DNA of 64,000 nt from Candidatus Woesearchaeota archaeon (GCA_047602765.1 JBLKOL010000002.1:10597-74596), one strand, 5' to 3'. Counted from the first letter of the stretch, positions 1 through 24,825 are shown. Made by a program: numbers and translations. Notes: generated by a model from the sequence alone, not told the origin.

Positions 1-3000
1 GCTCACTCCCCATCCGGCAACGCCGAAACGGTAGTCAGCTCCACAGCCACCGAGGTGGTCGAGGTCGAAGGTCACGCTGAACGTGTCCATTCCGCTCTCC
101 GAGACACTGACCCACGTGGGCAGTACCATCCACGACGTCCAACTTCCGCCAACGACTTCTCGGTAACCCCAGTAGTCGCCATCGTAGTGGCTTCCCTGAT
201 CTGCGTGGTACGACATCTGGAAGTTGGCTTCGCCATCGTTGTTCGCGTCGAACGTGAAGGCGACGTTGTCCTGGCTCCCGTCGACGAACGTGATGGGCGT
301 CGTTGCGGTGAAGGTCACCATACCATCGGTTCCGTAGAGAACCTCGACTTCGAGGTCTTCGTCGTAGGGGGTTTCTGCGCTGTACTCATGGGCGGTGTCT
401 ACGAGCAGGCACGTTCCAACGTCCTCCATCGTTGCTTCTCCCCAGCAGTACGCATCATCTACGAGTGCCCACGCATAGTACGTCCGGTTCACTCCGCTCG
501 GGTGCGGTTCGGGATCGTACGCGTCGAGTTCATAGCGCGTCTCTGTGTCCGTCCAGGTCACACCGTCCGCAGTGTACTGGGGTCCGGTGATCTCGAGTTC
601 GGTCACAGGCGGTACCGTTTCGACATAGTAGAACTGGTCTGCCATGTCCTTGCGGTTGCCGAGTGCGTCTTCACAGTACCACTTGAGCACGTGCTCCGAG
701 TCCTCGTTGAAGTCGAACTCGTAGCTGACGCCTGCAAAGCCCTTCGCCAGGAGTTCTGCTTCACGGAGCATCATTCCGGTTACGAGGCAGTACTCACCAT
801 CGTACTCCATACCAAAGCCCGGGAACTCGACGACCTTCTCGCAGAAGTCACCGTCGCATTCTTCGCGACCCAGGTTGCAGTAGCTCTCCGTGATGTCTTC
901 TCCGTCGTTGTAGACCTTGAAGCCGATCACTTCGCCACCGACCGGGTGGGGCATGACATCCTCACAGCTCAGGGTGATCGGAGTGTCTTGCGTGACGTAC
1001 GTGTAGTAGTCGAAGCAGACGCTTCCCGGCTCGGTGCTGCCACCGTTGCCGTTCTCACCGTTATACTCGGGAGAGGCTTCGAGGCTTGCGATCGCATCTG
1101 GTGTGATGCCATCAGCGGTACCAGCGAGCGCTTCGTCTACCTCTACGCTTCCGGAGGCGACCGGTGCGGTGTTCGAGCAGAGCCAGGTCACAGTAGTGCT
1201 GAGAAAGTTCTCATTGGTGTATCCGGTACCGTCGTAGTGTTCGAGACCCCCGCTTCCGCAGTATCCGCACACGGTTCCACACGTTCCACCCCAGTCGGCG
1301 AGGTACGTGTAGCCGAGCGAGTTGCAGATGTTCAAGGCATCATACTGACCTCCGCTGTTCGCCGAAACCCATGCGGTCTCAGTGTCAGCGCGGCAGACGA
1401 TGTAGGGCGAACCATACGAGGATTCTCCCGTCTGTCCATCGAAACCAGCTCCCGATCCGGGCGCATCATCGACGATGCAGATCTCGTCTTCAACAACGAT
1501 CTTCGGCTCGCCGACAATCTTGGTTCCATTGGGTGCCTGGTTGTCGACCATGACAAACTGCTGCTGCATCTCTTCTTCGTGACCGAACTTGTCGACCGCG
1601 AAGTAGCGGATCACATGGCAGCTCGTCTCGTCGATGGTGAACTCGACCGATTCTCCCTCGACCATAGTCCACTCCGGAGCCACATCAAACCGAACCCAAT
1701 CAAAGTACCAGTCGCTTTCTGCACCAACAGAAACACGAACTTCCACATAACCATCTGCCTCAACTTCCAAAATCGCAGAGTCCGGACCTGTAAGGCAGGT
1801 AAAGTGCGGAGCTGTGTTGTAGTAGTCCGGAATATCATACCAAGGGTTAGAACCGCTTGACAGACTTGTATCTCCATCAGGTCTGACCTCAAAGCAAGAC
1901 ATCAGAGGACCTCCATAATTGACTTCAAGGACTACATGTGTCGAGTTTGCATCCAACATAACCACATGCGGTCTATTAGTACCTATGTTTTCCTCATTAG
2001 TGGACTTAAACTCAAACGTTCCACCAGATACGTCAGCAACGGGCCCTACCACATCCGGATAGGCTTCACACACATCATCGCTTACCCATTCAACACTATA
2101 GTTGATGTAAGCGACTCCGATCTTCTCATCATCTGCTTCGAGGGTGATCGGGGTGCTAGAGGTAATCCAGCGGTACGTTCCGTCAAAGACCATGGGTTGT
2201 CCGTAGTCCTTGTCGGTAACCGGCGGCGTGCCGTCGACGAGGAAGCGTTCGACATCACTCATGGTGTTTCCGAGCAGGTCTTTGCACGTTACCGAGAGGA
2301 TGTGCTCGCTGTCGTACTCGAATACGATGACTGCGGGGTTGTCTTCGTCGAAGTAACCACCGTCATAGTGTTCGTAGACACCATCGTACTTGATCGTGTA
2401 CGTACAGTAGGCACCGCCAGAGTAGTGGACTGCTGCGTCTCCTTCCATGAAGTCTTCGACCGAGAGGTGTACTTCGGTCTCTCCCATCTTGAGGTAGCAC
2501 TCAGCTTCCATGTCTCCGTTATCGGGGACTTGGTCGGTTCCTGCAGGGCAGTCGGGTCCATCGTGCGGTCCGACAAGCGTCTTGGTGAGAACCGGAGCTT
2601 CATCGTCGATCTTGAAGTATTCGACGTCCTGCTCGCTCATCTTATCGACAGCATCGATGCACCACGCAGAGAGCCTGTGCAGGCTCGTCTGATCGAACGT
2701 GACGGTGTCTTGGTTCCGCGTGACGCCTCCGTCAACCTGTTCCCAAGTCTCTCCATCTTCCGTGCGGTGGAGTGCCCAGTGGACTACTTCCCCTCCTGAC
2801 GGGTGGGGTCCGACGTCTTCACAGACGAGCGTGACGACCGTGTCGGTGGTACCGAAGAAGTTGAGCGTCTCGTGGTATGCTCCGTTCGCGGTCCAGCGCG
2901 TCCAGTCAGCCGGGAAGTGCTTCTGGCTGCTGCCAGCTGTGTCCTTCCAATCAGCTTCAGCATTGACAGCCCAACCAAGCGTACTTGTATCGCCAAGAAT

Positions 3001-4658
3001 CGCATTGAGAACAGCTAGGTCAACCGAAATACTGAAATCAGTGCCTCCAGCAACGCCGGTAACGGTTACTCCTGGAGGAAGGGCTTCGGCATCTCCCCAA
3101 CCATTATCCCATTCCTTAATGTATGGAACACCGCCAAACTCAGCATCGTTTATACCAACGAGACCGATGGGCTCAGCACCGTTCGTGAGAACGACTTGGA
3201 TGCCGCTTGCAGTCACATCATCTTCCGTTTTGTCTAGACCGAGTTCAACATCAATCGTGACGCCTTCACAGGTGAAGGTACGTGTCATTGTTAGGTCGAA
3301 GTCGTCCTTGTTGCCAACACTAAAGTCAGCACCAGTCCAGGTGTCCACAACATCCTCACGGTCGAGATCGCACAGGTGCGGGATCGCATCCTCTACGGTC
3401 TTCGTGAGCTCCGGAGGAGTCTTGTCGACAAAGAATCGGAGGTACTGAACGTTCTCGTGGTTCTGGAGCTTGTCGTAGCTCTTGAACTCGATGACGTTGC
3501 AGCTCTCGTTGAATCCGCCGATCGTCTCTCCTTCGTATTCGATCCAGTCGCCATCGTAGGGTCCGGCAACGTGACCGTTTCCGAGAGGGTTGAGTGCGTT
3601 CTCATGATCGAAGCACTCGTGGTAGTCCGCCGGATCATCGAAGTAGTGGAGGCGGTATTGCGTCGTGACACCTGATGCATCGAACTTGTTGTCCTCTGCG
3701 CTCAGGGTGAATGTCGTACCACCGTTGGCGTACCATGCGTCGCGGAGCGTTCCGGACTGGTAGGTGCCTTGGTAGAGCGGACCGTCGTGGGACCAGCTCG
3801 TTACGGGCGCGGTTCCATCAACGATGTACTCTTCAGTGACCTGGTCCGCTTGGTTACCGGCGACATCCCAGCAGTCGACGACGAGCTCGTGATCGGAGTC
3901 ACGGTCGAAGTAGACGTTCCACGTGATCGAGGGCTCGCCACTACCGTATTCGGTTCCGCTGTCTTCGACTTCGCCGTTTCGGTAGAGCGTCCAGTCACAG
4001 TAGTCGATGCCGCTCTGGCAGTCGACATCAGCGACGTCGTTCGCCGTTATTTCAACGTACGAATCGCTGGGGTGAACATAGAGATCACCGTTGTGGGTCA
4101 CGTTCGTTCCGAAGAGCTCGGTCGTGATCACAGGCGGCGTCACATCGATGCTCGTGAAACCGTGGTTCATGTTAGCGTCTCCGCCAATCTCACCGGGATA
4201 CGTGTCGACCGTCTGAACATACCACTTCAACTCACACACATCTCCGGCACCCGCAGGAGTCTTAGCGGTGAAGGTGAAGTCCTTGCTCGTATCGTCATCG
4301 AAACCGTCGGTGAGTCCTGCTTGTGCGACCCACTGGCACGCATCGGTGACGATCTGGTTCGTTCCTGGTTGGTACACGTTGTGGTAGTTCAAGTTCCATC
4401 CGGTTATTGGATCACACACGAAATCCTCGTAAAGAGGATTCTTGTAGATCCAGACCTGTTGGATGGGGTCTGAATCAGCTTCGTTCGTTATTTTGAACGT
4501 ATAATCGATCACTTCATCGGGCTGCGACCACTCGGGGCTGAGCTCGACCGTCGCGGTATGTGCGAGCGGCGCGATCCCTCTGCGCTCACCGCGGTTGCGA
4601 CGAGAAGCAGAGCGAGCAGTGCGGCCGTGAAGCGCGTTACTCTTGTATGTTCTACCAT
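1..4658 (-). CDS. Giant secreted Cys/Asp/Trp-rich surface protein, partial (continues past the window start). The signal-peptide exon is in a different frame from the body (frameshift near 4577).
   Basis: Triplets at window positions 1-3, 4-6 and so on, complemented, contain no stop from position 1 to 4803 (checked triplet by triplet). ATG at 4658 has a GGAGGA Shine-Dalgarno sequence 7 nt upstream and encodes MVEHTRVTRFTAALLALLLVATAVSAEG, a classic signal peptide, but that frame stops after 49 codons. The long open frame is offset by one base. Confidence 0.6.
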
Positions 4659-4876
4659 TGTTGTTTCCTCCATATACAAATGGGAACTGATTGATGATCA
4701 TGATGATCAGGAATCGATTCGTGTACCGGGCTGTTGGGGTAGTCCGATACTTCGGGGCATACGAGAACCAGCAAAGACTGAAACGTACCCCCCAACTGTG
4801 CGTTCAAACGCATAACGCCTTGGAAGCGCACCCACAGTTATAAACCTTGCCCGGATGTGACCACTAATGGTGAGTA

Positions 4877-7800
4877 TCACGACGAGAAAACAGAATATTT
4901 TCGTCCCGCAAAAAGGACAAACATAACGAGTGCGAGTGATGCGATGAGGAGCACGAGCGACACCGGCTCGTCTTCGATCGGTCGCGGTTCTTCGGGCAAC
5001 GGCAGATCAACGAGCGGCATGTCAACGACAGCTCCAATCCGTTCTTCGGCGACCCCTATGACGAACACACTCAGTCCCGGTGCAACAGCCACATAATAGT
5101 AGAACCCCTCCGAAAACCGAACCATCTCAGTTTCAAGCAACTCCCAGCCAGTAGCGAACCTATACAGGCCTATAGCATCAGGATGTACTCCTTCGGTTTC
5201 GATCCACACAGCGGGAACCCTGAAAGAGAATTCGACCTCGCCCGCTTCTTCAACACGGATTTCGGCGATCTCATACGTGCGACCACGGAACGGTTCGACG
5301 TGTTCAGGCACCTGTGCGAGTTCTCGGATCTCGATACGCGGTTCGATACGCGGAGTGGACAATCGCGCTTCGATACGCTCGAATGATCCGGCGCGCTCAA
5401 CGCTCACGACGTCGACCGGTTCGGATTCGGGTTCTCGATCGGGTTCGTGCGGTTCGCTCGTCGTCGCCATGCCACCGCCACCTCCTCCACCCCCACCGCT
5501 CGGAGCACCACCCGTGCTCGGCTGCGTGATTTCGATGGTGAATTCGTTGCTCTCTACCGTCACACCATCGCGTTCTGCTACGATCCGTGCGGTTCCGCTT
5601 CCCGAATACGCGCTTGGAGCGTTCAGCGTTGCGCTCGAGCCGCTGATGGTCATCGTGACGGGAAGAGTCGTGTTGAGCGAGAACGAAACATCGTTCGCAG
5701 TGGTGAAGTACGAGAGAAGATCGATCGTCCGACTCGACCCTTGATTCCATGTTTGAGCAGGGATGGTGCTCGTGGTTTCGAGCGGTACGGGTTCGGGCGA
5801 TACGATGATATCCCACGCGACGTCTGTTTCCGCAAGGCTGTTGGTTGCGCTCAGTACGAGCGTTCCGCTCTCAAACGCGTTGAAGAGGAATTCGCTCTGT
5901 GATCCCGTGGTCGGGAAGGGTCCGATGAGGTGTCCTGCTTGGGAGACTTTGTCGAGCCATACGTCGTATTCGTCTTCTTCGGCGCTGCACGGCACAGGGT
6001 CTGATCCGAAGAGCGCCGTGTTATCGGTCCATGAGGTTGCGTCAGGAGTCCACCAGTTGTTTCGAACGGTTGGCGTGCTCATCCATCCGATCGCGTTCCC
6101 GCGTCCGCTGTTGTTCTCGAAGTCTGCGCTTGCGTGCAGGTTCCAGATGTATGCTCCGACGTTCTGCGAGTCGACGAACACCAGGTCTCCTTCGGGGTTC
6201 GTCACGTATCCGCATGAGATGATCGTGTTGTTCTCGATGCGGTTGTGTGCTCCTGCGCTGATCGCGATGCCATAGTTGCTCGTCGATACGACGTGATTGT
6301 TGTATGCGTGGAGGTATCGGTTCTCGCTCGTTCCGTCTCCGAGCATGATCCCACCACCCGAGTACGATCCGTGTTCGGGGTCGAGCGGGTAGGCTCCTTG
6401 GAAGTAGTTGTCGTGTATCCGGATCGGATCACCTGTTCTTCCCGAGGTTCGGTAGAGGCTGACGATGTCTTCGACGAAGCTCTCGTACGGCTCGTTGATG
6501 ACCTGGTTCCATGCGACTCGGGTGTTCGTCATGTTCCTGCTCTGGTCGAATTGGACGAATTGGACGTAGTGGACTCCTGAGAACCCTCCACTCCCATCGG
6601 ATATGCGTCCGTCGATGTTGCGCACCGTGTTCTTGAGGATCTGTACGGTTCCTCCGTGGGTTGAAGGGTGCATGTGCAGGTAGACTCCGCTCGTGTTCTC
6701 GAGGTGTGAGTGTTCGAGGAGCAGGTACGTGTAGCTGTCGAGGGCGATGAACCGCCCAGGGTACCTTCCTGCCTGTTCGGGTCTCACGCCGATGCCTTCG
6801 ACGTTTCGTACCGTTACGTTAGCGACGTATTCCGGTGGCGAGTAGATGTGGGTTGCGACGCTTCTCGTTCTCGAGTTCTCGATGGTTACGGGCTCGCTTG
6901 TTGCGATCGTTACGGCAGCAACGTCCGGGTCGGTGCTCTCCCACGATCCGCTGTAGGTTCCTCTTTCGGTGATCGTGATCGGCGAATCATAGGATTGTGC
7001 GCTCGTGGTCGTGAACGTCCAGTCGAACGTGACGGTTCGTCCTTTGACGTCGCTCGCGTTCGCACTGAACGTGCGTGTTTCGTTGTGTTCGAGTTCGATC
7101 GTTCCCGGCTGTGGATGTGCTTGGACGATCGGCCCCACAGCTTCTATGGTGAGGTCCCACGATTCTGTTACGTTCGAATCCTGGTTGGCGACTACCACGC
7201 GCACCTCGTAGAGAGCAGGGTCGAGGTCCATGCCATCGATCGTGACGTTCGACTCGTTCCCGAGCGGTGTTCCGTTGAGCGTCCACGTATAGTTGAGTCC
7301 TTCTTCGTACGGGTCGAAGGCTTCGACGGAGAAGGTGATCGTTTCGTTCTCGAGGACCGATACGCCACCATCTTCTTGGCTGCGGCTCGTGATGAAGGGT
7401 GAGGGGTCGATGATCGTGATCGTATATTCCTGTTCAGCAGATCCGTGTGTCTCAGTCTCATCGTGTCTGACCCGAACCGAGTACGAACCGGGTGCCATGA
7501 ATGCTTCGGTGTGGTTGATCGTCGTATTCGAGGCGTTGATGAACACGTCGTCGATGAAGAGTTCTATGATGGATCCGCTCGTCAGGTTCGCATGGATCGT
7601 TGCGTTGACAACTCCCACGTGTGTCAGGTTCGAAGCGTTGCCGTTGATCGTAACGTCGAATAAGGATTCGTATCGAGCGTGGAACGTTTCGGTGACGTGC
7701 GATTCTGTGCCGCTCGTCGTGTTCGCATATACTGTGATCGTGTACATGCCTGCGGTGAGGTTCTCGACCGTGAGGGTTCCTGTCGGTTCGCTGCGGATGA

Positions 7801-9193
7801 TCGTCTCGTTCGGTGTCGTAAGGTTCACTCGTGTCGTATCGAGTTCTCCTCCTGTTGTGATGCTCCACTCGAACGTCCAATCGGAATCGGGTTCGGGCGT
7901 GCTATCATACTCGAGGAGTATGGCTGGCGAGAACGTATCGAACGCTGATACGAGTCCGAATGCGTCGATCCGATGGTACGTTGTATCCGAGGCGCTGTCG
8001 TAGACGGGTACACCGGTTGCGATGAGTGTGTAGAGCGCTTCTGCAGGCGTCACGCTCAGATTCTGCCAACGCACGTATTCGTCGAGAAGCGCAAGGGCTC
8101 CGGATACGTGCGGTGTTGCCATGCTCGTTCCCGACTTGCTCTGTATGCCGCCGGGCACGGTCGAGCTGATAAGCACGCCGGGAGCGAGGATGATGTCGTC
8201 GAATGTTGCTGCGCGATTCGTGAATGCTGTGATCGCGTCGTTCGAGAGCGTTGCGCCTACGCGCATCGAATTGCTCGCGCACGCAGGGAATGAGATGCTC
8301 GAGTTCGAACCGGTGTTTCCCGTCGCTGATACAACGCTGATGTTCTGAGCGACCGCATCATTGATCGTGGCGACCCATGAAGACACCCATCCATCACATG
8401 GGCTCATGAACCGCTGTCCGGTTCCAAGACTCATACTGATGACTGAGATGTTGTACTCGTCTTTGTACGTCGTACACCATTCGACGCCGTGCATCGCGTC
8501 CGAGATGAAGCCATCGCCGTTCTCATCGAGGGATTTGATCGCGATGATCTTCGCTCCGGGAGCCACTCCCGTGACGGATCCGTTCGCGGCGATGATGCCG
8601 GCGACGTGGGTTCCGTGACCCTCATCATCCCACGGGTCATCGTCATCGTTGACGAAGTCGTATCCTCCGATGACTTTACTACACTCGCCTGCGAGGAACT
8701 CGGCGCTCGTACATCCTCCGAGCGACGGATGCGTATAGTCGACGCCGCTGTCGATCACGCACACCGTGCTTCCGGCTCCCGAGAGGGTGACGCCCTCAAA
8801 ACCCAGATCCCATACGGCGCTCGTGTTGATGATCTCGCGACTCGTCGAGAGCATGGTGCTCACGCGTACATCTTCGAAGATGCTCTCGATCCCAGGGTCC
8901 TTGCTGAGCTGTTCGAGCTGCGAGCGGGTGACCATCCGTGCTTCGAACCGCGACGCGAAAGCGCGAGGAAGCCGCTCACTCATGATTCGCATTCCTCGAT
9001 CACGTGCGTTTTCGCGGTACGTGATGACGACGCGTACCTCGTCTTCTGCTTCGAGGGTTTCGACGAGTGCTGGATCCACAGAAGCTACGAGTCCGGTCGG
9101 CTCTGGCTCGGAGTAGTAGACGAGCACGGCGGCTCCTGCGATGAGGAGAAGCAACGCGACGCGCACACCCCGATTTACGACTGACGAGCCCAT
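4877..9193 (-). CDS. Secreted S8 subtilisin-like serine protease with I9 propeptide, Ig/PKD-like repeats, a right-handed beta-helix (pectate-lyase/CASH-like) region, a Gly9 linker and a C-terminal transmembrane anchor.
   Basis: N-terminal signal peptide. Catalytic triad motifs VIDSGVD, HGTHVAG and GTSMATPHVSG. Beta-helix-like NxxxxS/T-rich repeats. C-terminal LVLLIASLALVMFVLFAGRKY transmembrane segment. Confidence 0.85.
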   Translation of the reverse strand: MGSSVVNRGVRVALLLLIAGAAVLVYYSEPEPTGLVASVDPALVETLEAEDEVRVVITYRENARDRGMRIMSERLPRAFASRFEARMVTRSQLEQLSKDPGIESIFEDVRVSTMLSTSREIINTSAVWDLGFEGVTLSGAGSTVCVIDSGVDYTHPSLGGCTSAEFLAGECSKVIGGYDFVNDDDDPWDDEGHGTHVAGIIAANGSVTGVAPGAKIIAIKSLDENGDGFISDAMHGVEWCTTYKDEYNISVISMSLGTGQRFMSPCDGWVSSWVATINDAVAQNISVVSATGNTGSNSSISFPACASNSMRVGATLSNDAITAFTNRAATFDDIILAPGVLISSTVPGGIQSKSGTSMATPHVSGALALLDEYVRWQNLSVTPAEALYTLIATGVPVYDSASDTTYHRIDAFGLVSAFDTFSPAILLEYDSTPEPDSDWTFEWSITTGGELDTTRVNLTTPNETIIRSEPTGTLTVENLTAGMYTITVYANTTSGTESHVTETFHARYESLFDVTINGNASNLTHVGVVNATIHANLTSGSIIELFIDDVFINASNTTINHTEAFMAPGSYSVRVRHDETETHGSAEQEYTITIIDPSPFITSRSQEDGGVSVLENETITFSVEAFDPYEEGLNYTWTLNGTPLGNESNVTIDGMDLDPALYEVRVVVANQDSNVTESWDLTIEAVGPIVQAHPQPGTIELEHNETRTFSANASDVKGRTVTFDWTFTTTSAQSYDSPITITERGTYSGSWESTDPDVAAVTIATSEPVTIENSRTRSVATHIYSPPEYVANVTVRNVEGIGVRPEQAGRYPGRFIALDSYTYLLLEHSHLENTSGVYLHMHPSTHGGTVQILKNTVRNIDGRISDGSGGFSGVHYVQFVQFDQSRNMTNTRVAWNQVINEPYESFVEDIVSLYRTSGRTGDPIRIHDNYFQGAYPLDPEHGSYSGGGIMLGDGTSENRYLHAYNNHVVSTSNYGIAISAGAHNRIENNTIISCGYVTNPEGDLVFVDSQNVGAYIWNLHASADFENNSGRGNAIGWMSTPTVRNNWWTPDATSWTDNTALFGSDPVPCSAEEDEYDVWLDKVSQAGHLIGPFPTTGSQSEFLFNAFESGTLVLSATNSLAETDVAWDIIVSPEPVPLETTSTIPAQTWNQGSSRTIDLLSYFTTANDVSFSLNTTLPVTMTISGSSATLNAPSAYSGSGTARIVAERDGVTVESNEFTIEITQPSTGGAPSGGGGGGGGGMATTSEPHEPDREPESEPVDVVSVERAGSFERIEARLSTPRIEPRIEIRELAQVPEHVEPFRGRTYEIAEIRVEEAGEVEFSFRVPAVWIETEGVHPDAIGLYRFATGWELLETEMVRFSEGFYYYVAVAPGLSVFVIGVAEERIGAVVDMPLVDLPLPEEPRPIEDEPVSLVLLIASLALVMFVLFAGRKYSVFSS

Positions 9194-9407
9194 ACGGTTC
9201 TAGAGCACGCTCAGGTTATAACGTTTGGGTATCATCCGCAGAGCTTCTTGCGCATCCATGGACCGTGGTATCAGTGAACCGATCGATCCTTAGACAGCGG
9301 TGTCTGTAGATCGCTGCATCCATACCACTCGCTCGCAGCGACACGCTACGACCACGCACAGATGCTCAACGGCTCGTTAAGAACTCATACGCACGCTTCT
9401 TATAGGA

Positions 9408-11765
9408 GTGGTATGCTCAAAGCCTATGGTACGCGCATTCCTCGGTGAAGCGAACTCGAAGCGCTTCTCGTACGAACTCTCTAAACTCACACGGCATGCG
9501 GCGATCCTCGGGACGACGGGTTCGGGCAAGACGGTGATGGGCAAAGTCCTCATCGAAGAAGCCCTCGCCTCGGGCGTTCCGGTGATCGCCATCGATCCGA
9601 AGGGTGATCTCGGCTCGCTCGGGGTGGTGCATAAGGACTTCGACTTCCGTCCGTACGGCAAGCTCACTACGTCTCGCGCGCTCAAAGTGCGCGACCACTA
9701 CCGCCAAGCGAACATCCCATCAGGACTTGTGGATTCGCTCACGAAGGTTACGACGACGGTCTACACGCCAAAATCACAAGTGGGGCGTGCGGTGAATCTC
9801 ACGCCTGATCTCTCAGCGCCCAAGCGGTTCGCCCATCTCTCAGCGTCCAATCCGATCGCAGCCGCAGGATTCGTCGAGCCGATCGCCGCTTCGCTCCTCT
9901 CCCTTGCAGGGATCAGCGGGTCGCTCGAAGAACGTGCCGAGTCGTTCATCGCAGCGCTCATACTCCATTCGTGGAATGAGGGTCGTGATCTTGACATCCC
10001 TGCGCTCATCGCACACGTCAAGGATCCGATGATCGATGGTATCGGATCGCTGAGCGTCGGAGAAGTCGTATCGGATAAGGAGCGTACGCGTATCGCAGCT
10101 CAGCTCAATACGATCATCTCGTCTCCGGCCAAGCGCGCGTGGTCGCTCGGTGATCCGCTCGATATGGAGTCGATGCTCTCGAAAAAGACGCTTTCGGTCT
10201 TCGATCTTCGCTGGGCGACGAGCCAGTCTGATAAGCAGTACGTCGCTGAGCGTATCATGAGTGAATTGTATCGCGCACTGCTCAGCCGTGGAGGCTCTTC
10301 GAGGCTGCGTTACGTGCTCTATATCGATGAACTCGCAGGACTTCTCCCACCACCGCCGGCGAGCCCGCCGTCCAAGCGAGCCCTCGAACTCCTCGTACGA
10401 CAGGCGCGGGCCTTCGGTCTTGGTATCGTCGTAGCGACGCAGAACCCTGGTGATATCGATTCGCGTCTCTTCGGTAATATCGGAACGCGTTTCATCGGAC
10501 GCCTGCGTACGAGCATGGATATCGAGAAGGTTGCGATCGCCATGGACCTTCCTCCTTCACAGTTGCGCGAAGAGGTCTCGGCCTTGACGGCCGGAGGGTT
10601 CGTCGTGAACGATGCCGTCGACAATCGCATGAGCGTCTTACGCTGCCGTTGGCTCGCCTCGTTCCACGAAGGTCCGCTCAGCGAACGCGAGGTCGGATGG
10701 GTGAACGATGGTGCACCGGCACCGGCAGAGCCGCTTCCCAAGCCTTCACGGTCCGCTGCGGCTTCGAAGGATGCGAAGACGTCCGCGAAGGGTGCGAAGG
10801 GCCGGACGACAAGGGGCACGAACAAGAGCGGAGCAGGGAAAGCGGAGCCTTCGCGTATCGCCGGTAAGAACATCGTACGCGATGCGAAACGCGCGAAACA
10901 CACGACGGTTTCTCGTACGCAGCACCTTGCGCCTTCGGTGGACAAGCAGATCAAGAATCTGATCGGACTCGTCAAGAAGCATGCTGATGACGTACAGCTC
11001 AAGGTCGAGATATCCGAGCGACCTGCGCAGTCGTATACGCCACACCTGCGTCTTGTCGTAGCGCCCAAGCCGCTGCGCGGACTCGAGCTTCCGATCCAAG
11101 GACCGTTCGTCTTCGATATGACGAGTCGTCTCATCCCGATCGGAAACTACCTGAAGGGCAAGACGTTCTCAACGTACGTTCCATCCGATATCTCGATCGA
11201 GAAGCACGCGCGTTCGGTGATGAAGGCCGTAACCTATGCGCGTCACGAGGCGAAACGCGAACTCGCAGGTACGTTCTACGAGTCCAAGCTCACCGCCTTC
11301 GCATCACCATCACGTTCGGAGGTCGAGGATATGAACCACCGCTTCCTCTCTGAGGAGCTCACGCCGTTCTTGCGTCAGATCGATGCGAAGGCCCGGCGTG
11401 ATATCGACGATCTCAAGGCGCGTATCTCAGCCCTTCGGACCAAGCGTTCGAGCCTCAACCGCGAGCATACGATCCACCGCGCTCGTCGAGCCATGAGGCG
11501 CGTGCTCACCGATCAGAAGCTCAAGAAGCGTACGGCACAGATGCAAGAGCGCGAACGACGCATGGCGATGATCGACAAGGAGATCGCACAGCTCAAAAAA
11601 CGCATCGAAACAGTCAAAGAGCGCGCATCAGAGCAGAAGGAACGCCGCAAGGCACGCGTGTACGAGAAGGCGCACTCACAGGTACGCTCGATCCGCTATC
11701 GTCCGACGAACGACGATCTGCGCATCCACGCACAGGTGTTGCTCGTACGCAGCCGCGGACGATAA
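9408..11765 (+). CDS. HerA-like / DUF853 (YjgR)-family P-loop ATPase with a ~340-aa Lys/Arg-rich coiled-coil C-terminal extension.
   Basis: Walker A AILGTTGSGKTV followed by VPVIAIDPKGD. Walker B VLYIDELAG. VVATQNPGDIDSRLFGNIGTRFIGRL motif. GTG at 9408 or ATG at 9426 as start. Confidence 0.75.
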   Translation: MVCSKPMVRAFLGEANSKRFSYELSKLTRHAAILGTTGSGKTVMGKVLIEEALASGVPVIAIDPKGDLGSLGVVHKDFDFRPYGKLTTSRALKVRDHYRQANIPSGLVDSLTKVTTTVYTPKSQVGRAVNLTPDLSAPKRFAHLSASNPIAAAGFVEPIAASLLSLAGISGSLEERAESFIAALILHSWNEGRDLDIPALIAHVKDPMIDGIGSLSVGEVVSDKERTRIAAQLNTIISSPAKRAWSLGDPLDMESMLSKKTLSVFDLRWATSQSDKQYVAERIMSELYRALLSRGGSSRLRYVLYIDELAGLLPPPPASPPSKRALELLVRQARAFGLGIVVATQNPGDIDSRLFGNIGTRFIGRLRTSMDIEKVAIAMDLPPSQLREEVSALTAGGFVVNDAVDNRMSVLRCRWLASFHEGPLSEREVGWVNDGAPAPAEPLPKPSRSAAASKDAKTSAKGAKGRTTRGTNKSGAGKAEPSRIAGKNIVRDAKRAKHTTVSRTQHLAPSVDKQIKNLIGLVKKHADDVQLKVEISERPAQSYTPHLRLVVAPKPLRGLELPIQGPFVFDMTSRLIPIGNYLKGKTFSTYVPSDISIEKHARSVMKAVTYARHEAKRELAGTFYESKLTAFASPSRSEVEDMNHRFLSEELTPFLRQIDAKARRDIDDLKARISALRTKRSSLNREHTIHRARRAMRRVLTDQKLKKRTAQMQERERRMAMIDKEIAQLKKRIETVKERASEQKERRKARVYEKAHSQVRSIRYRPTNDDLRIHAQVLLVRSRGR

Positions 11766-12762: not shown

Positions 12763-14337
12763 GTGATACTCATGACAGCAGGCGGATTCGTACTACACGA
12801 CGGAAGACAGGTGCATTCGATCTCAGAGCTCGTATCCGTGCTCGAATCGATGGATCCTACTACGTATGCTCACTATTGTAACGAGTACAAGAACGATTTC
12901 GCGTCGTGGATCCGCACGGCGTTGCACGAGTCCCAACTCGCCGATATTCTCGAAGAGACACAGAATCGTGAAGCTGCGATCAGCGTTCTGCGCACGTACG
13001 TGAGACTCCACGCTCCAGAGGACCCGTTCCGGGTCGAACACTCCGAATCGGATCGCAAGAAGTTCTTCTTCCACAAGAAGCCATCCCGCTCTGAGCCAGA
13101 TGACCCTGCACGTGTCGCACCGCCTGAACCTCCACAACCCGTCTCGATGGACAAGCAGATGTTCAAGGAAGCCGACATAAGGTTCGAACCCGAGCAGCCG
13201 ACACAACCGGTACAGGAACCAACCCCTCCGGCAGAGCCGCAGCCGACACCACCACCAGTTCAACCCTCTCCACCACCTGTAGGCAGCAATCCTGATGCTC
13301 CGTACGAGCCGCACGCCGCGAAGGGCGCTACGCAGTTCACGGATTCCGGAGAAGAGGTACTCACCGAGACCGTGGTCGAAGAGTATGCTGAGACGCTCCA
13401 TGCCATGCGCTCTGAGATCAACAAGGTCTTCATCGGTCAGGAGGAGATCGTCGAACAGGTGCTCTTGTGCCTCATGTGCGATTCCCATTCGCTCCTCGAA
13501 GGAGTACCTGGACTTGCGAAGTCGCTCCTCGTAGAGACGCTCACGCACGTCGTCGACGGGACGAAGTTCAACCGTATCCAGTTCATCCCCGACCTGCTCC
13601 CTTCAGATGTCATCGGAGGTCAGATCTACAATCCGAAGACGCAGGAGTTCACTGTTATCAAAGGTCCGATCTTCGCGAATTTCGTGCTCGCAGACGAGAT
13701 CAACCGTGCCCCTCCCAAGACACACGCAGCGGTCATGGAGGCGATGCAGGAGAAGAAGATCAACATCGACAAGGAGGAGTTCGACCTCGACCCGCCCTTC
13801 CTCATCATCGCAACACAGAATCCGCTCGAGAACAAGGGAACGTACGAGCTTCCCGAGGCCGTTCTCGACAGGTTCATGTTCAAGCTCGATCTCGACTACC
13901 CGTCGCGCAAAGATGAGAAGATCATCATCACCGAGAACGCTACGACGAAGAAGTACGAGAAGCAGGCGGTCCAGAAGGTCGTCACCAAAGAGCGCTTCTT
14001 GCAGATGCAGCGCAACGTGAAGAACGTGTACCTCTCTGAGCGTATCCGTGACTACATCCTCGACCTCGTAGAAGCCACTCGTGGTATCAATAAGGACATC
14101 GAAGGATACCAGTTCGTCAAGTACGGTGCTGGTCCGCGTGCGTCGATCTACCTCGGTATCGGTGCGAAGGCTCGTGCGATCATGCAAGGCCGAAACTACG
14201 TCTTGCCCGACGATGTGAATTTCGTGGCGAAGCCGATCATGAGGCATCGCGTCGCGCTCAACTTCAAAGGTAAGGCTCACGGTATCAAGTCGGATCGCAT
14301 CGTCGAGGAGATCCTTCATAAGGTCACGACTCTTTGA
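12763..14337 (+). CDS. MoxR-family AAA+ ATPase with a ~200-aa N-terminal extension (NDFASW domain plus Pro/Gln-rich linker).
   Basis: C-terminal 320 aa carry MoxR hallmarks (GVPGLAKSLL Walker A, FVLADEINRAPPKTHAAVMEAMQEKKI, ATQNPLE). The N-terminus is paralogous to the 12374..12700 ORF. Confidence 0.85.
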   Translation: MILMTAGGFVLHDGRQVHSISELVSVLESMDPTTYAHYCNEYKNDFASWIRTALHESQLADILEETQNREAAISVLRTYVRLHAPEDPFRVEHSESDRKKFFFHKKPSRSEPDDPARVAPPEPPQPVSMDKQMFKEADIRFEPEQPTQPVQEPTPPAEPQPTPPPVQPSPPPVGSNPDAPYEPHAAKGATQFTDSGEEVLTETVVEEYAETLHAMRSEINKVFIGQEEIVEQVLLCLMCDSHSLLEGVPGLAKSLLVETLTHVVDGTKFNRIQFIPDLLPSDVIGGQIYNPKTQEFTVIKGPIFANFVLADEINRAPPKTHAAVMEAMQEKKINIDKEEFDLDPPFLIIATQNPLENKGTYELPEAVLDRFMFKLDLDYPSRKDEKIIITENATTKKYEKQAVQKVVTKERFLQMQRNVKNVYLSERIRDYILDLVEATRGINKDIEGYQFVKYGAGPRASIYLGIGAKARAIMQGRNYVLPDDVNFVAKPIMRHRVALNFKGKAHGIKSDRIVEEILHKVTTL

Positions 14338-15245
14338 GGGAACGCATGGAGAAGAATGATTCGAGCATTCCGGTCAACATGTTCGATTTCGAAACGCTCA
14401 TGCGCGAGACGGTACGCGAGTCCGTCAAGCTCCTCGAATACTTCCGCCTCAGCCTCATCTACTACCAGCTCGTATCGGGTAAGGGTCTTGAGTTCGACCG
14501 TATCCGCGAGTACCACCCCGGTGCCGATCCGCGTCGTATCGACTGGAAGATCTTCGCCAAACGAGGAGAGCTCAAGATCCGCGCGTTCAAGGAAGAACGC
14601 CATTTCGACATCATTATCGTGCTCGACGTTTCGGATACGATGCTTCTGGGTACGACGTCGATGACCAAGAACGAGTATGCTGCGATCGTGGCCGGAGCGT
14701 TGACGTTCGCGGCGATCGAAGCGTCGGATAACGTGGGGCTCGTGATGAACTCTTCGAAGGTTTCGCTCGCTACGGATCCGACATCGGATTTCGCCAAGAT
14801 CATGGCGGAGGTCGCGAACACGGATAACTATGGTGGCGAGAAGGACTGGGATAATCTCGTGCTCAACCTCACCGGTAACTACACGGAGGATTCGATCGTC
14901 TTTGTGATATCGGATTTCATCGATACGAATCCCGAACGGTTCTTGCCCGAACTCTCAGGCCACTTCACGAAGGTATATGGTATCATGGTCCGTGATCCTT
15001 CGGATAACGAGATCCCCCCAGGTGTGGGACGCATGTACCTTCAGGATGCCGGTGGCAAGAAGATGTACCTCACGGACTTGGACCACGTGCGCGAGGAGTA
15101 CGCACTGCTCGCTCGCCGGCAGATCGATCTGATACGCGATTCGTTCCACAGCTACGACCAGCTCTTCTTCGAGATCACGACGCTCGGAGAGTTCGCTGAG
15201 GAGTTCATCAAAGCCCTCGGATCCGAAGAGGTGATCGTATCGTAA
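14334..15245 (+). CDS. DUF58 family protein (MoxR partner).
   Basis: 4-bp overlap with the moxR stop (ATGA). Typical DUF58 length and position between MoxR and the VWA protein. Confidence 0.75.
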   Translation: MRERMEKNDSSIPVNMFDFETLMRETVRESVKLLEYFRLSLIYYQLVSGKGLEFDRIREYHPGADPRRIDWKIFAKRGELKIRAFKEERHFDIIIVLDVSDTMLLGTTSMTKNEYAAIVAGALTFAAIEASDNVGLVMNSSKVSLATDPTSDFAKIMAEVANTDNYGGEKDWDNLVLNLTGNYTEDSIVFVISDFIDTNPERFLPELSGHFTKVYGIMVRDPSDNEIPPGVGRMYLQDAGGKKMYLTDLDHVREEYALLARRQIDLIRDSFHSYDQLFFEITTLGEFAEEFIKALGSEEVIVS

Positions 15246-15265
15246 CCGCACAACTCGGAGGATTC

Positions 15266-16216
15266 GTGCTCGACCTGTACAATCCGTTCGAGAACCTCAT
15301 GCTCCTCGTCTTGCTCTTGGTATTCACCACGCTCGCCTTCTACAGTTTCACGTTCCTGCGTAAGAAGCGCGCGTCGCGCTTCGGGAACATCAAGACGCTC
15401 GAACGCGTCCACGGCTTCAAACGCTTCCACATCTCTCCGGGCATCTTGATCATCAAGCTCTTCGTGGTAAGCCTGCTCTTTCTCGTCGCGACGGATTCGG
15501 TGCAGGTCTCGCGGTTCCAGCCGACTGCTGATACGGATTACGTCCTCTTGCTCGACACGTCTCCTTCGATGACCCAGACGGATCTCAATCCGAGCAGGCT
15601 CGGAGCAGCTAAGAACATCGCAACCGACTGGCTCAGAGTCGTTCCCAACGGAACCCGTGTGGGCCTCGTATCCTACAGTCGCGAACTCGGATCCACGGTA
15701 GACCCGACGTTCAACAAGGAGCATATCCGCTCCGAGATCGCTCGTGTGGAGGTCGATCTCAACCAGACGGATACGTCTCCGGATTTCGCCATCCAATACG
15801 CTACGAACATGCTCAACGATTCTACGAACAAACGCGCGGTGCTCCTCTTCACCGATGGAACGCAACCGGTTGATCCTTCGACCATCCGTCTCGCCCAGAA
15901 CCTGAACGTTCGTATCTATGCGTTCGGTATCGGAACCGAAGAGACGCGCGAGTTCGACCTCTCGGACATCCCCGAAGAGTTGTGGGATACGTTCGATCGC
16001 CTCGAGTTCAACTTCTCACGCCTCCAATCCCTCTCCGAAGCGACGAACGGAACCGCATACCACATCGGCAGCCAAGACGACCTTCGCCAAGCCTTCCGCG
16101 ATGCGACGTACGAGGAAGCGGCTATCCAACTCAACAGCGCCTTCTACGTGCTCATCCTCATAGCCCTCATTTCGATCCTCGAACTCTTCGTCTACGCACA
16201 CTTGGGTGGAATCTAA
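15266..16216 (+). CDS. VWA-domain membrane protein (BatA-like).
   Basis: N-terminal and C-terminal transmembrane segments. VWA MIDAS-like LLLDTSPSMTQTD motif. Completes a MoxR-DUF58-VWA operon. Confidence 0.8.
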   Translation: MLDLYNPFENLMLLVLLLVFTTLAFYSFTFLRKKRASRFGNIKTLERVHGFKRFHISPGILIIKLFVVSLLFLVATDSVQVSRFQPTADTDYVLLLDTSPSMTQTDLNPSRLGAAKNIATDWLRVVPNGTRVGLVSYSRELGSTVDPTFNKEHIRSEIARVEVDLNQTDTSPDFAIQYATNMLNDSTNKRAVLLFTDGTQPVDPSTIRLAQNLNVRIYAFGIGTEETREFDLSDIPEELWDTFDRLEFNFSRLQSLSEATNGTAYHIGSQDDLRQAFRDATYEEAAIQLNSAFYVLILIALISILELFVYAHLGGI

Positions 16217-18806: not shown

Positions 18807-21260
18807 CTAGTACCTCCTCCTGCGGATCACCCATACGGTGAGCAGCGTCCATGCGGCGAGTATGATCATGAGGATGGAGAAGCTGAGCGGGCGGTCGAGG
18901 AATCCTCGTTCTTGGATGAGGAGGGTTACGGGTACGAATCCTACGAGTCGTCCTTCTCCGTCTTCGAATCGCAAGTGGTAGTCGCATACGTCTGATCCTG
19001 CCGATCGGAACGTGTAGGTGAGTGCTGATCGTTCTCCGACTTCGAGCGAGCCCGATCCAGTGATGTCGCTGAGGCACGGTGTCGGGTCGAATCTGATGGT
19101 GATGTCGTCGAGCGGGTTGTCTCCGATGTTCTCGATGAGGAAGCTTACGTCCTGTCGGGCGTTGGGAGGCATGCGTATGACCGGTGGATACTCGATGACT
19201 CTGAGTCGGTAGAGGTCTCCTCGGGGGAGTACGATGACGCGTAGTACGTCTCTGAGGACGCGGTTGCGGCTCAGCCCGTCTGCGGAGTCGACGTATACGT
19301 CTACGGGTATGAAGTATTCTCGTGGTGTCGCTCGAACGTCGGGTGAGAGCAGGTACGAGTCTGACACGCGCTCTCCCGGAGGGAGCTGGAGGAGTCGGAA
19401 TATCTCAGCTTCCCATTCTCGTGGTACTTGGGTTTCGATCGAGATGTTGCGTGCGCTCGTTCCTCCGACGTTCGTAAGGTTGAAGTCTACGCTTCCGATC
19501 TCTCCTTGTCGGAGCGTGATGTTCTCTGGGAGTTCGAGTTCGAGTTCTACGATCTCGGGGAATACGTCTACTTCCGGTATCTCTACGGGTGCGCTCGGCG
19601 TTCCTCCCGCTCCTGTGCCGCTTCCTGCCTGTGGTTGGGGCTGTGGTTGAGGTTCTGGTTCGGGTTCTGGTTGTGCGAACGTCGATTCGAAGGCGTACGG
19701 TGCGAATACGGAGAAGTCTGTGATGTTGGTGGGTGAGAATACGATGCTCATCTGTGGTGCTACGAGTGTGAAGAGCTGTTCCCACTCTCCATCGGTCCAC
19801 GAGCTGTGGTTCGACTGGTTCGACTGGTTCGTCGCGTTGCCGTTCGTCACGTTACCTATCGTTTGGTTGACCGGTCCGATGTAGGTTCCGTTGAATTTGA
19901 AGATGCTCACGTTGTCGATGACCGCGTCGTTGGGAAGCGGTTCGCTGTACTTGAAACCGATCTGTACCCACGAGTTAGGTCCGTTCCTGATGAATTCGAC
20001 CCAGTGGCCTATGTCTGTGATGTTCGTGATGTTAGGTGGTGGTGGCGGGTCGGGTACGGGTCGTACGAGTGCGTCTGCGAAGGAGGCGTTGAGTACGGAC
20101 GTTGAGAAGTTCGTTTCGAAGAGCCTGACCCTCGAGTTGCCGGATGCGTTGATGTCGTTGTCTTCGTTGGAGAGGATCATGGCTTCTGCGATGAGTACGT
20201 CGGATTGGTTTCTGATGAGCACGCCGGTATTGTGGAATACGGCTGACTCTCCGAATATGGCGACCGAGCTGTTCGTCACGCAGAGTCCGTAGCGGAACTG
20301 TGCGGTCTTCAGGTTCTCAAAGGTGATACCTTGGCTGTTGCGCACGTCGACCGGGCATCGTCCAGGGGCTTTGCTCCCTGCCGGATCGTTGTCTCCGTGG
20401 ATCTGCTCTCCGACGAAGTTGAGTACGATGTTCGATGCGTTCTCTACGATGACGCACGTTTCGTTGACGTTGTTGATCGACTTGTTGAGGATGTAGTATC
20501 CTGATTCGTTGAGCGGTTCGCATGGCTCGTATACGAGTACTTCGAGGCTCAGGATGCCGTTGACGTAGATGCGTTCTCCTCCTTGGAAGCTTCCGTCGAA
20601 GAGTATGAAGTCGTCTTGGTTCATGATCGAGCGTTCGATGACCGAGTCGTTGGCTGCTACGATGGAGGTGACCATCTGGCGTTCGTTTCGCGTGATCGGC
20701 ATGCCGGTCTCGTCGAATACGGTGTCGATCGTGATGAAGTACTGTTTGGGAGGTCCTCGTACTTCGATGCCGATCCGGAACGAGCCGTTGAGCAGCGTAT
20801 CGAGGGGTTCGAAGTCTGAGATGACCGTCTCGTTCGTCGCGTTCTTTCTGATGATGAACGGTGTCGGATAGCCGGGGTAGAGGCTGTTGAGGCTTGAGAG
20901 GTCGACGTCTACCGACGAGCAATACTCGGTGCCTACGAGCGTCACTTCGTGTACGCGGGGTTTGAAGTTGAGCAGGCTCCATTCGAGTTCTTTGTCTTCT
21001 GATACGAATCGCAAATCGATGCGATCATCGACTTGGAGGTCCGGATGGCATATGTCGAGTACGACGTCCGGGTTCGTCGGGCTCTGGTCGATGTAGGCGT
21101 CAGCTCCGAAGGTCGCAGGGTACGATGCGTTGTAGACCGATCCTGAACGGTCGTATCTGAGTTCCAATACGGGTGTGCCGTCCTGGGTGACGAGGCTCGC
21201 GTTCGCTGCGAGCGCGGTGGGTACGAGGAGCAGTACGAGCACGAGCCATTTCATGGTCAT
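18807..21260 (-). CDS. Secreted cell-surface glycoprotein with beta-helix (NosD/CASH-like) repeats, very many N-x-S/T sequons, a PEPEPEPQPQPQ linker and a C-terminal transmembrane anchor with RRRRY tail.
   Basis: Signal peptide MTMKWLVLVLLLVPTALAANA. More than 30 N-glycosylation sequons. C-terminal LSFSILMIILAAWTLLTVWVIRRRRY. Confidence 0.8.
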   Translation of the reverse strand: MTMKWLVLVLLLVPTALAANASLVTQDGTPVLELRYDRSGSVYNASYPATFGADAYIDQSPTNPDVVLDICHPDLQVDDRIDLRFVSEDKELEWSLLNFKPRVHEVTLVGTEYCSSVDVDLSSLNSLYPGYPTPFIIRKNATNETVISDFEPLDTLLNGSFRIGIEVRGPPKQYFITIDTVFDETGMPITRNERQMVTSIVAANDSVIERSIMNQDDFILFDGSFQGGERIYVNGILSLEVLVYEPCEPLNESGYYILNKSINNVNETCVIVENASNIVLNFVGEQIHGDNDPAGSKAPGRCPVDVRNSQGITFENLKTAQFRYGLCVTNSSVAIFGESAVFHNTGVLIRNQSDVLIAEAMILSNEDNDINASGNSRVRLFETNFSTSVLNASFADALVRPVPDPPPPPNITNITDIGHWVEFIRNGPNSWVQIGFKYSEPLPNDAVIDNVSIFKFNGTYIGPVNQTIGNVTNGNATNQSNQSNHSSWTDGEWEQLFTLVAPQMSIVFSPTNITDFSVFAPYAFESTFAQPEPEPEPQPQPQPQAGSGTGAGGTPSAPVEIPEVDVFPEIVELELELPENITLRQGEIGSVDFNLTNVGGTSARNISIETQVPREWEAEIFRLLQLPPGERVSDSYLLSPDVRATPREYFIPVDVYVDSADGLSRNRVLRDVLRVIVLPRGDLYRLRVIEYPPVIRMPPNARQDVSFLIENIGDNPLDDITIRFDPTPCLSDITGSGSLEVGERSALTYTFRSAGSDVCDYHLRFEDGEGRLVGFVPVTLLIQERGFLDRPLSFSILMIILAAWTLLTVWVIRRRRY

Positions 21261-21559
21261 GACCCGATTACGGTTTCGAGGAACGCGGTGTAGCTGTGGT
21301 AGACGAAGTCGAGGACTTGGCTGATGATTTCGCGGCGGTGGATCGTCTTCGCGGGGTACGGTCCTTGGAAGGCCGGGTCGGCGATGTAGAAGGGATACTG
21401 TTGGGTGAGTACTCCGTCCACGACGAACGTGAATTCTTCTCCGTCCTCTTGGCGTCCGATCATGGAGAGTTCGTATCCGCCGATGTAGTTCTCAAGATCG
21501 GTGTAGTTGTATTGTGGGAGGTAGAGTTTGTTGTAGGTCGGCATGAAGTAGAGCGACAT
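21257..21559 (-). CDS. Small hypothetical ORF, probably the frame-shifted C-terminal portion of the upstream 371-aa secreted protein.
   Basis: Overlaps the 3' end of 21492..22607 by 68 nt in another frame. The open frame continues upstream of its Met with protein-like sequence (…ITFRTDYSGAMSLYF…). Confidence 0.4.
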   Translation of the reverse strand: MSLYFMPTYNKLYLPQYNYTDLENYIGGYELSMIGRQEDGEEFTFVVDGVLTQQYPFYIADPAFQGPYPAKTIHRREIISQVLDFVYHSYTAFLETVIGS

Positions 21560-22607: not shown

Positions 22608-22640
22608 CGCTGGCGATTCGTGCTTATTAAACTATGCGGG

Positions 22641-24344: not shown

Positions 24345-24380
24345 TCGCACGTGCCCCTTGGGTGTTCTCGCCCTTCGACC

Positions 24381-24388
24381 TTTATAAT
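24381..24388 (-). promoter_or_regulatory. TATA-box-like element (TTTATAA) for the minus-strand surface-protein operon.
   Basis: AT-rich hexamer in a GC-rich context, ~37 nt upstream of ATG 24344. Confidence 0.35.
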
Positions 24389-24825
24389 CGTTTCGTCGCC
24401 CAGCGAGAGCAACACTCACGAGTAGTGACGATTAGGACCTTATATATGTTTGGGGGACGCTGATCGGTCGAACCACGAGGTGTGCGCCCCTCGAAACGAT
24501 CCGAAACCAAGCCGAGCCCTATCAGTGCTCACAGACCACGCAGATTTCAAGACCTTGCTTCGAGAAGCCGACACACTGCGCCCGTATCTCTACAGGTTAG
24601 CCTCTCACGCGACAGCTGCAGGTACGAAACCGCCTCTTCAGCGTATCTAACACTAAGATACGCAGGGACGCGTTCAGAATACGAGTGGAAGGCCTGCAAT
24701 ACGTTCAGCCATGTGAATACGTATCCGGCAAGGATCATGAAGTACCGTTTCACGAACTGCGAGCAGAAGAACCGTCGGATCGGAGAAGGATGAGAAAGGG
24801 TTGAAGAAAAAGGTTTCACACAGCA

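Follow-up and report, generated by a model that had tools for sequence, protein, structure and literature searches.

A surface-anchored Woesearchaeota subtilase with a putative glycan-degrading beta-helix nested in its immunoglobulin-like stalk

What can be discerned from sequence and structure prediction about the large minus-strand gene at positions 4877-9193 of a 64,000-nucleotide stretch of DNA from a Candidatus Woesearchaeota archaeon (GCA_047602765.1, JBLKOL010000002.1:10597-74596; hereafter the window)? Our analysis argues for a surface-anchored protease that carries a putative glycan depolymerase on the same stalk, that is, for an enzyme with two activities, a reading to which we assign a probability of roughly 60%; the domain map by itself is much more certain. 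From N to C terminus, the polypeptide is predicted to run through a signal or anchor segment, a propeptide-like region, a subtilase domain of peptidase family S8, five immunoglobulin (Ig)-like domains, a linker rich in Gly, Pro and acidic residues, a PGF-pre-PGF domain, a transmembrane helix and a short cytoplasmic tail. In a step specific to this lineage, a loop of the fourth Ig-like domain would have taken up a complete module of about 370 residues. The scaffold is unremarkable and had been annotated before; what is new, and modestly interesting, is the nested, lineage-specific module, which belongs to an uncharacterised beta-helix family linked to carbohydrate-binding modules (CBMs). The features of the gene are given below, with residue numbers in amino acids (aa) and with the AlphaFold2 (AF2) confidence as predicted local distance difference test scores (pLDDT):

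4877-9193, minus strand: whole gene, a surface-anchored S8 subtilase with a nested beta-helix; 1438 aa plus stop, from the open reading frame (ORF) list and translation
9104-9193, minus strand: N-terminal hydrophobic segment, signal peptide or signal anchor (aa 1-30); Kyte-Doolittle hydropathy above 1.6 over aa 5-30
8819-9103, minus strand: putative propeptide-like region (aa 31-125), from a weak Inhibitor_I9 match and a position N-terminal of the start of the alignment with the subtilase Tk-SP (aa 115)
7922-8818, minus strand: S8 catalytic domain (aa 126-424) with D148, H193, N293 and S357; Pfam Peptidase_S8 and alignment with PDB entry 3afg
7130-7921, minus strand: three Ig-like beta-sandwich domains (aa 425-688); all-beta in AF2 with pLDDT 88-96, tandem-Ig matches in Foldseek
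7016-7129, minus strand: N-terminal half, four strands, of the split fourth Ig-like domain (aa 689-726); AF2 pLDDT of about 88-91, contiguous with aa 1098-1135 in the relatives P0002 and P0003
5903-7015, minus strand: nested right-handed beta-helix, putative glycan hydrolase or lyase (aa 727-1097); gap in P0002 and P0003, AF2 and Foldseek
5789-5902, minus strand: C-terminal half, three strands, of the split Ig-like domain (aa 1098-1135); alignment A1, AF2 model residues 674-708 with pLDDT 75-91
5513-5788, minus strand: fifth Ig-like beta-sandwich (aa 1136-1227); all-beta in AF2 with pLDDT 80-90, kept in P0002 and P0003
5375-5512, minus strand: flexible Gly-rich and acidic/Pro-rich linker (aa 1228-1273) with nine consecutive Gly at aa 1233-1241; from sequence, AF2 pLDDT below 50
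5045-5374, minus strand: PGF-pre-PGF domain TIGR04213 (aa 1274-1383); NCBIfam, beta-rich in AF2 with pLDDT 63-84
4880-5044, minus strand: acidic/Pro spacer, transmembrane helix at aa 1411-1435 and tail GRKYSVFSS (aa 1384-1438); hydropathy up to 2.9, AF2 helix at model residues 987-1011

The nesting is apparent from a comparison with the two nearest relatives, P0002 (1078 aa, 78% identical) and P0003 (1075 aa, 68% identical). Each is collinear with our protein from end to end and lacks only aa 727-1097. In both relatives, the residues that flank the insert join up into a single domain of about 75 aa, and in our protein AF2 models both halves of this split domain confidently (aa 689-726 and aa 1098-1135), with the insert in frame and placed exactly between strands. 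As a counterpart of the giant gene that lies downstream of ours is also found downstream of P0002, at 69% identity, P0002 and P0003 can be regarded as orthologs, from which our protein differs by an insertion or deletion at one locus. None of the 119 homologs that we compared, the best of 2609 proteins found at E<=1e-3, covers the insert, and the most parsimonious view is that this lineage gained it. A scan of genome contigs likewise found no second fusion of an S8 domain with the insert and returned only bacterial stand-alone relatives.

Could the fusion be an artefact of assembly or gene calling, or a decaying pseudogene without function? The sequence is derived from a metagenome, and a neighbouring gene carries inactivating mutations. 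However, the ORF opens with an ATG and continues through 1438 codons, or 4.3 kb, without stops or frameshifts, in exactly the extent originally predicted, and both enzyme modules retain their conserved residues. The product is 100% identical to P0001, deposited at NCBI as 'MAG: S8 family serine peptidase [Candidatus Woesearchaeota archaeon]' (MAG, metagenome-assembled genome), and 20 contigs, four separate Logan run assemblies among them, carry the identical 1438-aa product. The insert, with a GC content of 0.574, a third-position GC content (GC3) of 0.72 and few Lys residues, also matches its host gene in composition. Together with the precise, in-frame placement of the insert, this recurrence and this composition make a misassembly or chimera at the fusion unlikely, and we regard the whole explanation by artefact or decay as very improbable indeed. 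The identity to a database protein also means that the gene had already been deposited and automatically annotated, and its source bears out the DPANN affiliation that had been guessed from the sequence.

What is the nested module? Modelled by itself on an alignment of 67 sequences (A2), the insert winds into a coil of short strands with a helix as its C-terminal cap, with a pLDDT of 95.5 and a predicted template-modelling score (pTM) of 0.93. In Foldseek searches with this model, the PDB matches are all right-handed beta-helix polysaccharide enzymes, and the top BFVD matches are right-handed beta-helices as well. The classes represented comprise, among glycoside hydrolases (GH), the GH87 alpha-1,3-glucanase, GH28 and GH136, among polysaccharide lyases (PL), PL6 and PL9, and further RbmB, fucoidan lyase, the epimerase AlgG and phage tailspike depolymerases. 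Structure prediction and structural search thus confirm the pectate-lyase-like beta-helix of the original prediction as a fold. In Pfam, the insert falls just short of Beta_helix (PF13229), with 24.0 bits (E 3.3e-5) against a cut-off of 25.9, a mark that some members of its family pass, such as P0241 with 37.9 bits.

This family is large. Searched alone, the insert finds 344 homologs that are 40-66% identical to it along about 95% of its length, and among 1.84 billion cluster representatives, searched exhaustively, 1336 matched at E<=1e-3, 441 of them below 1e-30. Most members stand alone, as secreted proteins or lipoproteins with a length of 380-560 aa. The insert runs from the 'ITxGGTYSGxW' start to the C-terminal helix and so corresponds to the mature stand-alone protein; since the mature part of its relatives starts and ends where the insert does, it is the whole module that is nested. 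In GTDB, the carriers are mostly Deinococcus, Hymenobacter, Pontibacter and Tepidisphaeraceae/Phycisphaerales (Planctomycetota), and tandem copies are suggested by match spans that far exceed the length of one gene in many of these loci. A neighbour-joining tree places the insert together with P0124, P0121, P0123 and P0122, of which P0123 stems from another Woesearchaeota MAG with 38% GC and P0124 from a contig with 33% GC that also encodes a DRG-type GTPase. On the basis of this grouping, the insert probably came most directly from a DPANN copy that stands alone, in a family that is mainly bacterial.

The associations of the family point to polysaccharides. Its members are found fused to NPCBM, CBM6, CBM35, CBM60, dockerin and GH115_C, as well as to F5/8-C, PA14, Big_2 and tails of the type IX secretion system (T9SS), and none of the long members examined contains a protease domain. 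We examined the genomic context of eight relatives of the module, and in three of these loci polysaccharide-synthesis genes adjoin the family gene. In Deinococcus yavapaiensis, three tandem paralogs lie beside a GT4 glycosyltransferase, a Wzx-like (Polysacc_synt) flippase and an AAA_31 ATPase:

2963-9233 of locus L008 (QJSX01000002.1), about 6 kb: three D. yavapaiensis paralogs of 597 aa (with NPCBM), 422 aa and 410 aa, 40-44% identical to the insert

The second locus holds three GT4 genes, an NDP-sugar transferase, an AAA_31 ATPase and Bac_transf; in the third, the family gene adjoins a GT2 synthase and DUF2334. Three more of the eight loci have secreted beta-helix or CAZyme-like (carbohydrate-active enzyme) neighbours, the Woesearchaeota locus of P0123 has housekeeping neighbours, and the contig of P0121 is too short for context. 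By analogy, the family may act on polysaccharides as a hydrolase or lyase, and the D. yavapaiensis paralogs make a good system for finding its substrate.

Does the fused copy cleave, or does it merely bind? The main rival reading is that the module is a non-catalytic glycan-binding domain, an adhesin or lectin, with which a protease-adhesin docks on polysaccharide of a host or matrix while cleaving proteins only. It draws on three substitutions, E892R, R990T and D1046N, that are derived in the fused copy with respect to its nearest relatives, on the fact that beta-helix folds also act as adhesins, one of the BFVD matches being a fibronectin-binding adhesin-like protein, and on the placement of the module in an Ig-like stalk typical of adhesins. 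However, all family-invariant acidic, His and Arg residues, namely D861, R863, D866, E908, D909, H927 and D953, are retained in the fused copy, and Thr at position 990 also occurs in the bacterial relative P0125. Moreover, the family members carry separate carbohydrate-binding modules, which suggests that the beta-helix is their catalytic part. We therefore consider a purely binding module unlikely, if still the most serious competitor of a two-activity enzyme.

Several points nevertheless weigh against the two-activity enzyme. The three derived substitutions lie at positions that are 87-94% conserved and are absent from the nearest relatives, so that the module could be binding and not catalytic. 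The Foldseek matches are weak, with a best E of 7.7e-4 and TM-scores of 0.3-0.4, and neither phmmer nor the 67-sequence profile, run against all PDB sequences, found a relevant sequence relative of the insert; with TM-scores of at most 0.4, these searches do not place it in a characterised GH or PL family of CAZy. NCBIfam searches with the insert and four relatives returned no family, and the family as a whole is uncurated, having no Pfam or NCBIfam model and no characterised member. The stalk, aa 425-1438, was modelled by AF2 on a 10-sequence alignment of S8 homologs only (A5), mixed alignments of S8 and beta-helix sequences (A3 and A4) having been discarded, as MAFFT laid the Ig domains of the homologs onto the insert. 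Because A5 holds S8 homologs only, the insert is without alignment depth in this run, and this model speaks to the nesting through pLDDT and secondary structure, not through the position of the module relative to the split Ig domain. Finally, both the propeptide and the cleavage of a signal peptide are only weakly supported.

On the protease side, Pfam Peptidase_S8 (PF00082) matches aa 139-393 with E 1.5e-46 and 159.5 bits against a cut-off of 21.8, and 165 PDB subtilases match the protein at E<=0.01, the closest being Tk-SP of Thermococcus kodakarensis (3afg, E 2e-37). D148 (VIDSGVD), H193 (HGTHVAG), N293 (ATGNTG) and S357 (GTSMATPHV) line up with the canonical motifs of 3afg, in the forms IDTG, HGTHV, GNSG and GT(S)MATPHV, and hence follow the order Asp-His-Ser with the oxyanion Asn in place. 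By these matches, the protein is a clear member of peptidase family S8, and its catalytic domain looks competent, with no argument against activity in the sequence. The intact active site that had been proposed is thus found in all four residues. Of the complete protease originally claimed, the D/H/S triad stands, whereas the propeptide is only weakly borne out by an Inhibitor_I9 match over aa 88-113 with E 0.038 (Pfam).

In the AF2 model of the stalk, aa 425-729 are all-beta with a pLDDT of about 90 and aa 1096-1224 are all-beta with 75-91, and Foldseek searches with these domains return tandem-Ig arrays and bacterial adhesin stalks at E of about 1e-10. Of the PKD/Ig-like repeats described earlier, the Ig-like arrays are borne out; a Pfam PKD match at aa 613-681 stays below threshold with 19.1 bits against 23.5. 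N-X-S/T sequons crowd this region, 19 of them within aa 425-726, as fits an archaeal surface glycoprotein; the protein is membrane-tethered and probably glycosylated. Beyond the fifth Ig-like domain, the linker, which differs in length among the orthologs in the P0002/P0003 alignment, contains the predicted Gly9 hinge and is disordered in AF2. It leads to a domain that had been overlooked: TIGR04213 matches aa 1287-1379 with 45.5 bits in the whole protein and 49.1 bits in a C-terminal fragment, against a cut-off of 28, and by these scores the protein belongs to the PGF-pre-PGF domain set.

A second spacer (aa 1384-1410) and the transmembrane helix complete the model. The C terminus, EPVS...GRKY.VFSS, is invariant across the three orthologs and reads as EPVS, transmembrane helix and GRKYSVFSS, without a PGF motif. 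TIGR04213 apart, NCBIfam searches with the last 46 or 205 aa gave no match even at E<=10, PGF-CTERM (TIGR04126) included. Judged by its C-terminal signal, the protein would fall outside the PGF-CTERM substrates of archaeosortase A. The lack of a PGF-CTERM motif had been predicted, as had the anchor itself, a plain transmembrane segment with a basic tail and no match to a sorting-signal model.

Is this architecture unusual, as the original prediction had it in speaking of a protease-adhesin-like protein? Among the 2609 homologs, many of the named ones belong to Woesearchaeota, Micrarchaeota, Nanoarchaeota, Pacearchaeota, Aenigmarchaeota and Altiarchaeota; the label 'PGF-pre-PGF domain-containing protein' recurs in several. 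A hydrophobic segment is present in the last 90 residues of 92 of the 119 best homologs, and 34 of the 119 have a PGF-pre-PGF counterpart detectable by BLAST. With a C-terminal hydrophobic segment in so many homologs, the architecture as a whole is ordinary: an S8 domain on an Ig-like stalk with a C-terminal anchor is, as far as these homologs tell, the standard surface protease of DPANN and other archaea. A different, unrelated beta-helix of the NosD/CASH type (NosD/Beta_helix) follows the protease in three of 120 proteins (P0051, P0056 and P0073), in series and not nested. The rare part, by this comparison, is the nested beta-helix, of which the beta-helix had been seen before, and not its nesting or its lineage-specificity.

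How does the protein relate to known systems? Tk-SP, its best PDB sequence match, likewise combines an S8 domain with an N-terminal propeptide. The archaeal S8/PGF-pre-PGF set shares the order of signal, propeptide, S8 domain, Ig-like domains, PGF-pre-PGF domain and transmembrane helix, whereas the 370-aa module is found in our protein only, and in none of the 119 others. A broader likeness is to the cell-envelope proteinases of the type of pyrolysin, the lactocepin PrtP and the streptococcal C5a peptidase, in which a long, beta-rich C-terminal extension with a C-terminal anchor holds the protease at the surface. In function, our scaffold would be a counterpart of the cell-envelope proteinases of Gram-positive bacteria and Thermococcales. 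However, its anchor is a plain transmembrane segment after a PGF-pre-PGF domain, and not an LPXTG motif or an S-layer stalk, and it alone carries a second enzyme-like module nested in the stalk; a PA domain was not detected in it by Pfam.

For the module, the closest functional parallels are beta-helix enzymes from extracellular polysaccharide (EPS) loci, such as RbmB of Vibrio cholerae, a polysaccharide lyase (PDB 9ozl; PMC11637428), and WceF of Pantoea (PMC7949094). The right-handed parallel beta-helix is common to the module, to RbmB and WceF, and to AlgG (4nk6), PL6/PL9 and GH87/GH28. Relatives of the module have polysaccharide-synthesis genes as neighbours in three of eight loci, and carbohydrate-binding fusions occur among them. 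In contrast to this likeness in fold and context, a sequence relationship is not detectable by profile against the PDB and the Foldseek TM-scores are only 0.3-0.4, so that a catalytic mechanism cannot be transferred to the module. By analogy, the module may work like EPS-locus depolymerases such as RbmB and WceF.

The original prediction had also likened the protein to the giant surface proteins of DPANN archaea. The nanohaloarchaeal SPEARE proteins comprise 5-9 thousand aa, with a C-terminal VirB4-like ATPase and a disputed protease domain (PMC10266531). Our protein shares with them a DPANN origin, Ig-like arrays and membrane anchoring, and has a P-loop ATPase gene as a neighbour. However, it has 1438 aa, a bona fide S8 domain and no ATPase domain by Pfam and NCBIfam. 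The resemblance is thus superficial, and with neither the size nor a VirB4/TraG-like ATPase domain, we rejected membership in the SPEARE type.

The neighbouring giant gene was found as predicted, as a second large minus-strand frame that extends from 4803 off the window edge with 1601 codons open, or 1567 aa from the called start at 4701:

1-4701, minus strand, running off the window: downstream giant Cys-rich gene, a conserved neighbour; 2145 aa in full from L003
4573-4658, minus strand: out-of-frame signal-peptide ORF with a 1-nt deletion site at 4573-4583; ATG at 4658, GGAGG 8 nt upstream

The giant protein contains 50 Cys (2.3%), matches no Pfam family and has only 15 homologs, among them the ortholog downstream of P0002 (L005) mentioned above for its 69% identity. 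While its orthologs have ordinary signal peptides, the signal peptide here, MVEHTRVTRFTAALLALLLVATAVSAEG, lies in a frame different from that of the body of about 2100 aa, owing to a 1-nt deletion with respect to the L005 ortholog at window positions 4573-4583; a three-frame translation compared with L005 reads GCAGATGGGATC versus GCAGAGGGATC. The sequence around the deletion site is identical in L001-L004, the four run assemblies fetched. In addition, a nonsense single-nucleotide polymorphism changes GAA to TAA at codon 290 (window position 3834) in L001 and L004, and is absent from the window and L003, and the L004 copy has a 9-nt in-frame indel. The database holds the 1694-aa fragment that results on 7 contigs and no full-length product. 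The gene looks recently inactivated, or dependent on frameshifting. Of the giant Cys-rich secreted protein that had been proposed, the Cys-rich character is confirmed, whereas secretion is unsupported in this genome, as the signal peptide lies in another frame.

Divergently upstream of the S8 gene, at 9408-11765 on the plus strand, we observed a gene for a basic P-loop ATPase of 785 aa (pI, isoelectric point, 10.2) with HerA_C, DUF87, AAA_10 and TrwB_AAD_bind matches. Could the S8 protein, the giant Cys-rich protein and this divergent HerA/VirB4-like ATPase form a host-interaction locus of a DPANN archaeon, analogous to the giant-protein loci of nanohaloarchaea, which opens the envelope of the host? 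In its favour, a relative keeps the S8 gene and the giant gene in synteny, the 785-aa ATPase (HerA_C, DUF87, AAA_10, TrwB) is their divergent neighbour, and giant surface proteins of nanohaloarchaea have been reported beside ATPases of the VirB4/TraG family (PMC10266531). However, the giant gene seems dispensable, given its out-of-frame signal peptide and a premature stop in several samples, the S8 protein has no ATPase or other SPEARE-type domain by Pfam and NCBIfam, and the linkage to the ATPase is observed in this one genome only. Such a locus is therefore improbable in our view, and a surface protease with a nested, putatively catalytic module remains the reading that we favour.

Further features of the window are set down here as side observations. 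At 12763-16216 (plus strand) lies a three-gene cluster of a MoxR-type AAA_3 ATPase, a DUF58/VWA protein and a VWA protein. Three consecutive large ORFs of 817, 371 and 592 aa occupy 18807-24419 (minus strand), a stretch with a marked positive GC skew and a negative AT skew; their products contain 1.1-2.0% Lys, and the only Pfam match among them is a marginal one to NPCBM_assoc/NEW3 in the 817-aa ORF (24.7 bits). These may be further surface proteins. A tRNA-Thr (CGT) at 60362-60434 (plus strand) is the sole RNA gene detected in the 64 kb. The S8 protein itself has 0.7% Lys and a pI of 4.4, an acidic, Lys-poor sequence that suggested salt-in halophily. We set this aside, since the other window proteins are mixed, with pI values of 4.4-10.2, so that the bias is a trait of the extracellular proteins and not of the whole proteome.

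What, then, might this protein do for the cell? The literature that we searched on Woesearchaeota subtilases, on PGF-pre-PGF proteins and on beta-helix, NPCBM and EPS enzymes contained no paper on this protein or on the family of the module, and we infer the activity of either module, its substrate and the biological role from the features above. After secretion and removal of the propeptide, the mature protein would be held at the membrane by its C-terminal helix, and proteolysis and glycan cleavage would be displayed some tens of nanometres off the membrane. A metabolically reduced cell could in this way digest a matrix of glycoprotein and EPS for uptake, be it environmental or part of the envelope of a host or neighbour. 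A bolder version holds that a single surface enzyme of a DPANN archaeon cuts both protein and glycan to breach such an envelope, and that the module represents a new carbohydrate-active family of more than 400 clusters, abundant in Deinococcus, Hymenobacter and Pontibacter; this we consider unlikely. Several members of the family lie beside polysaccharide-synthesis genes, and one characterised member would annotate hundreds of genes, including those of radiation- and desiccation-tolerant bacteria. For DPANN archaea, which have tiny genomes and rely on nutrients from outside or from a host, surface enzymes are the main clue to feeding and attachment, and the protein described here indicates that a very common surface protease scaffold of this group can absorb a whole enzyme-like module within one of its Ig-like domains.

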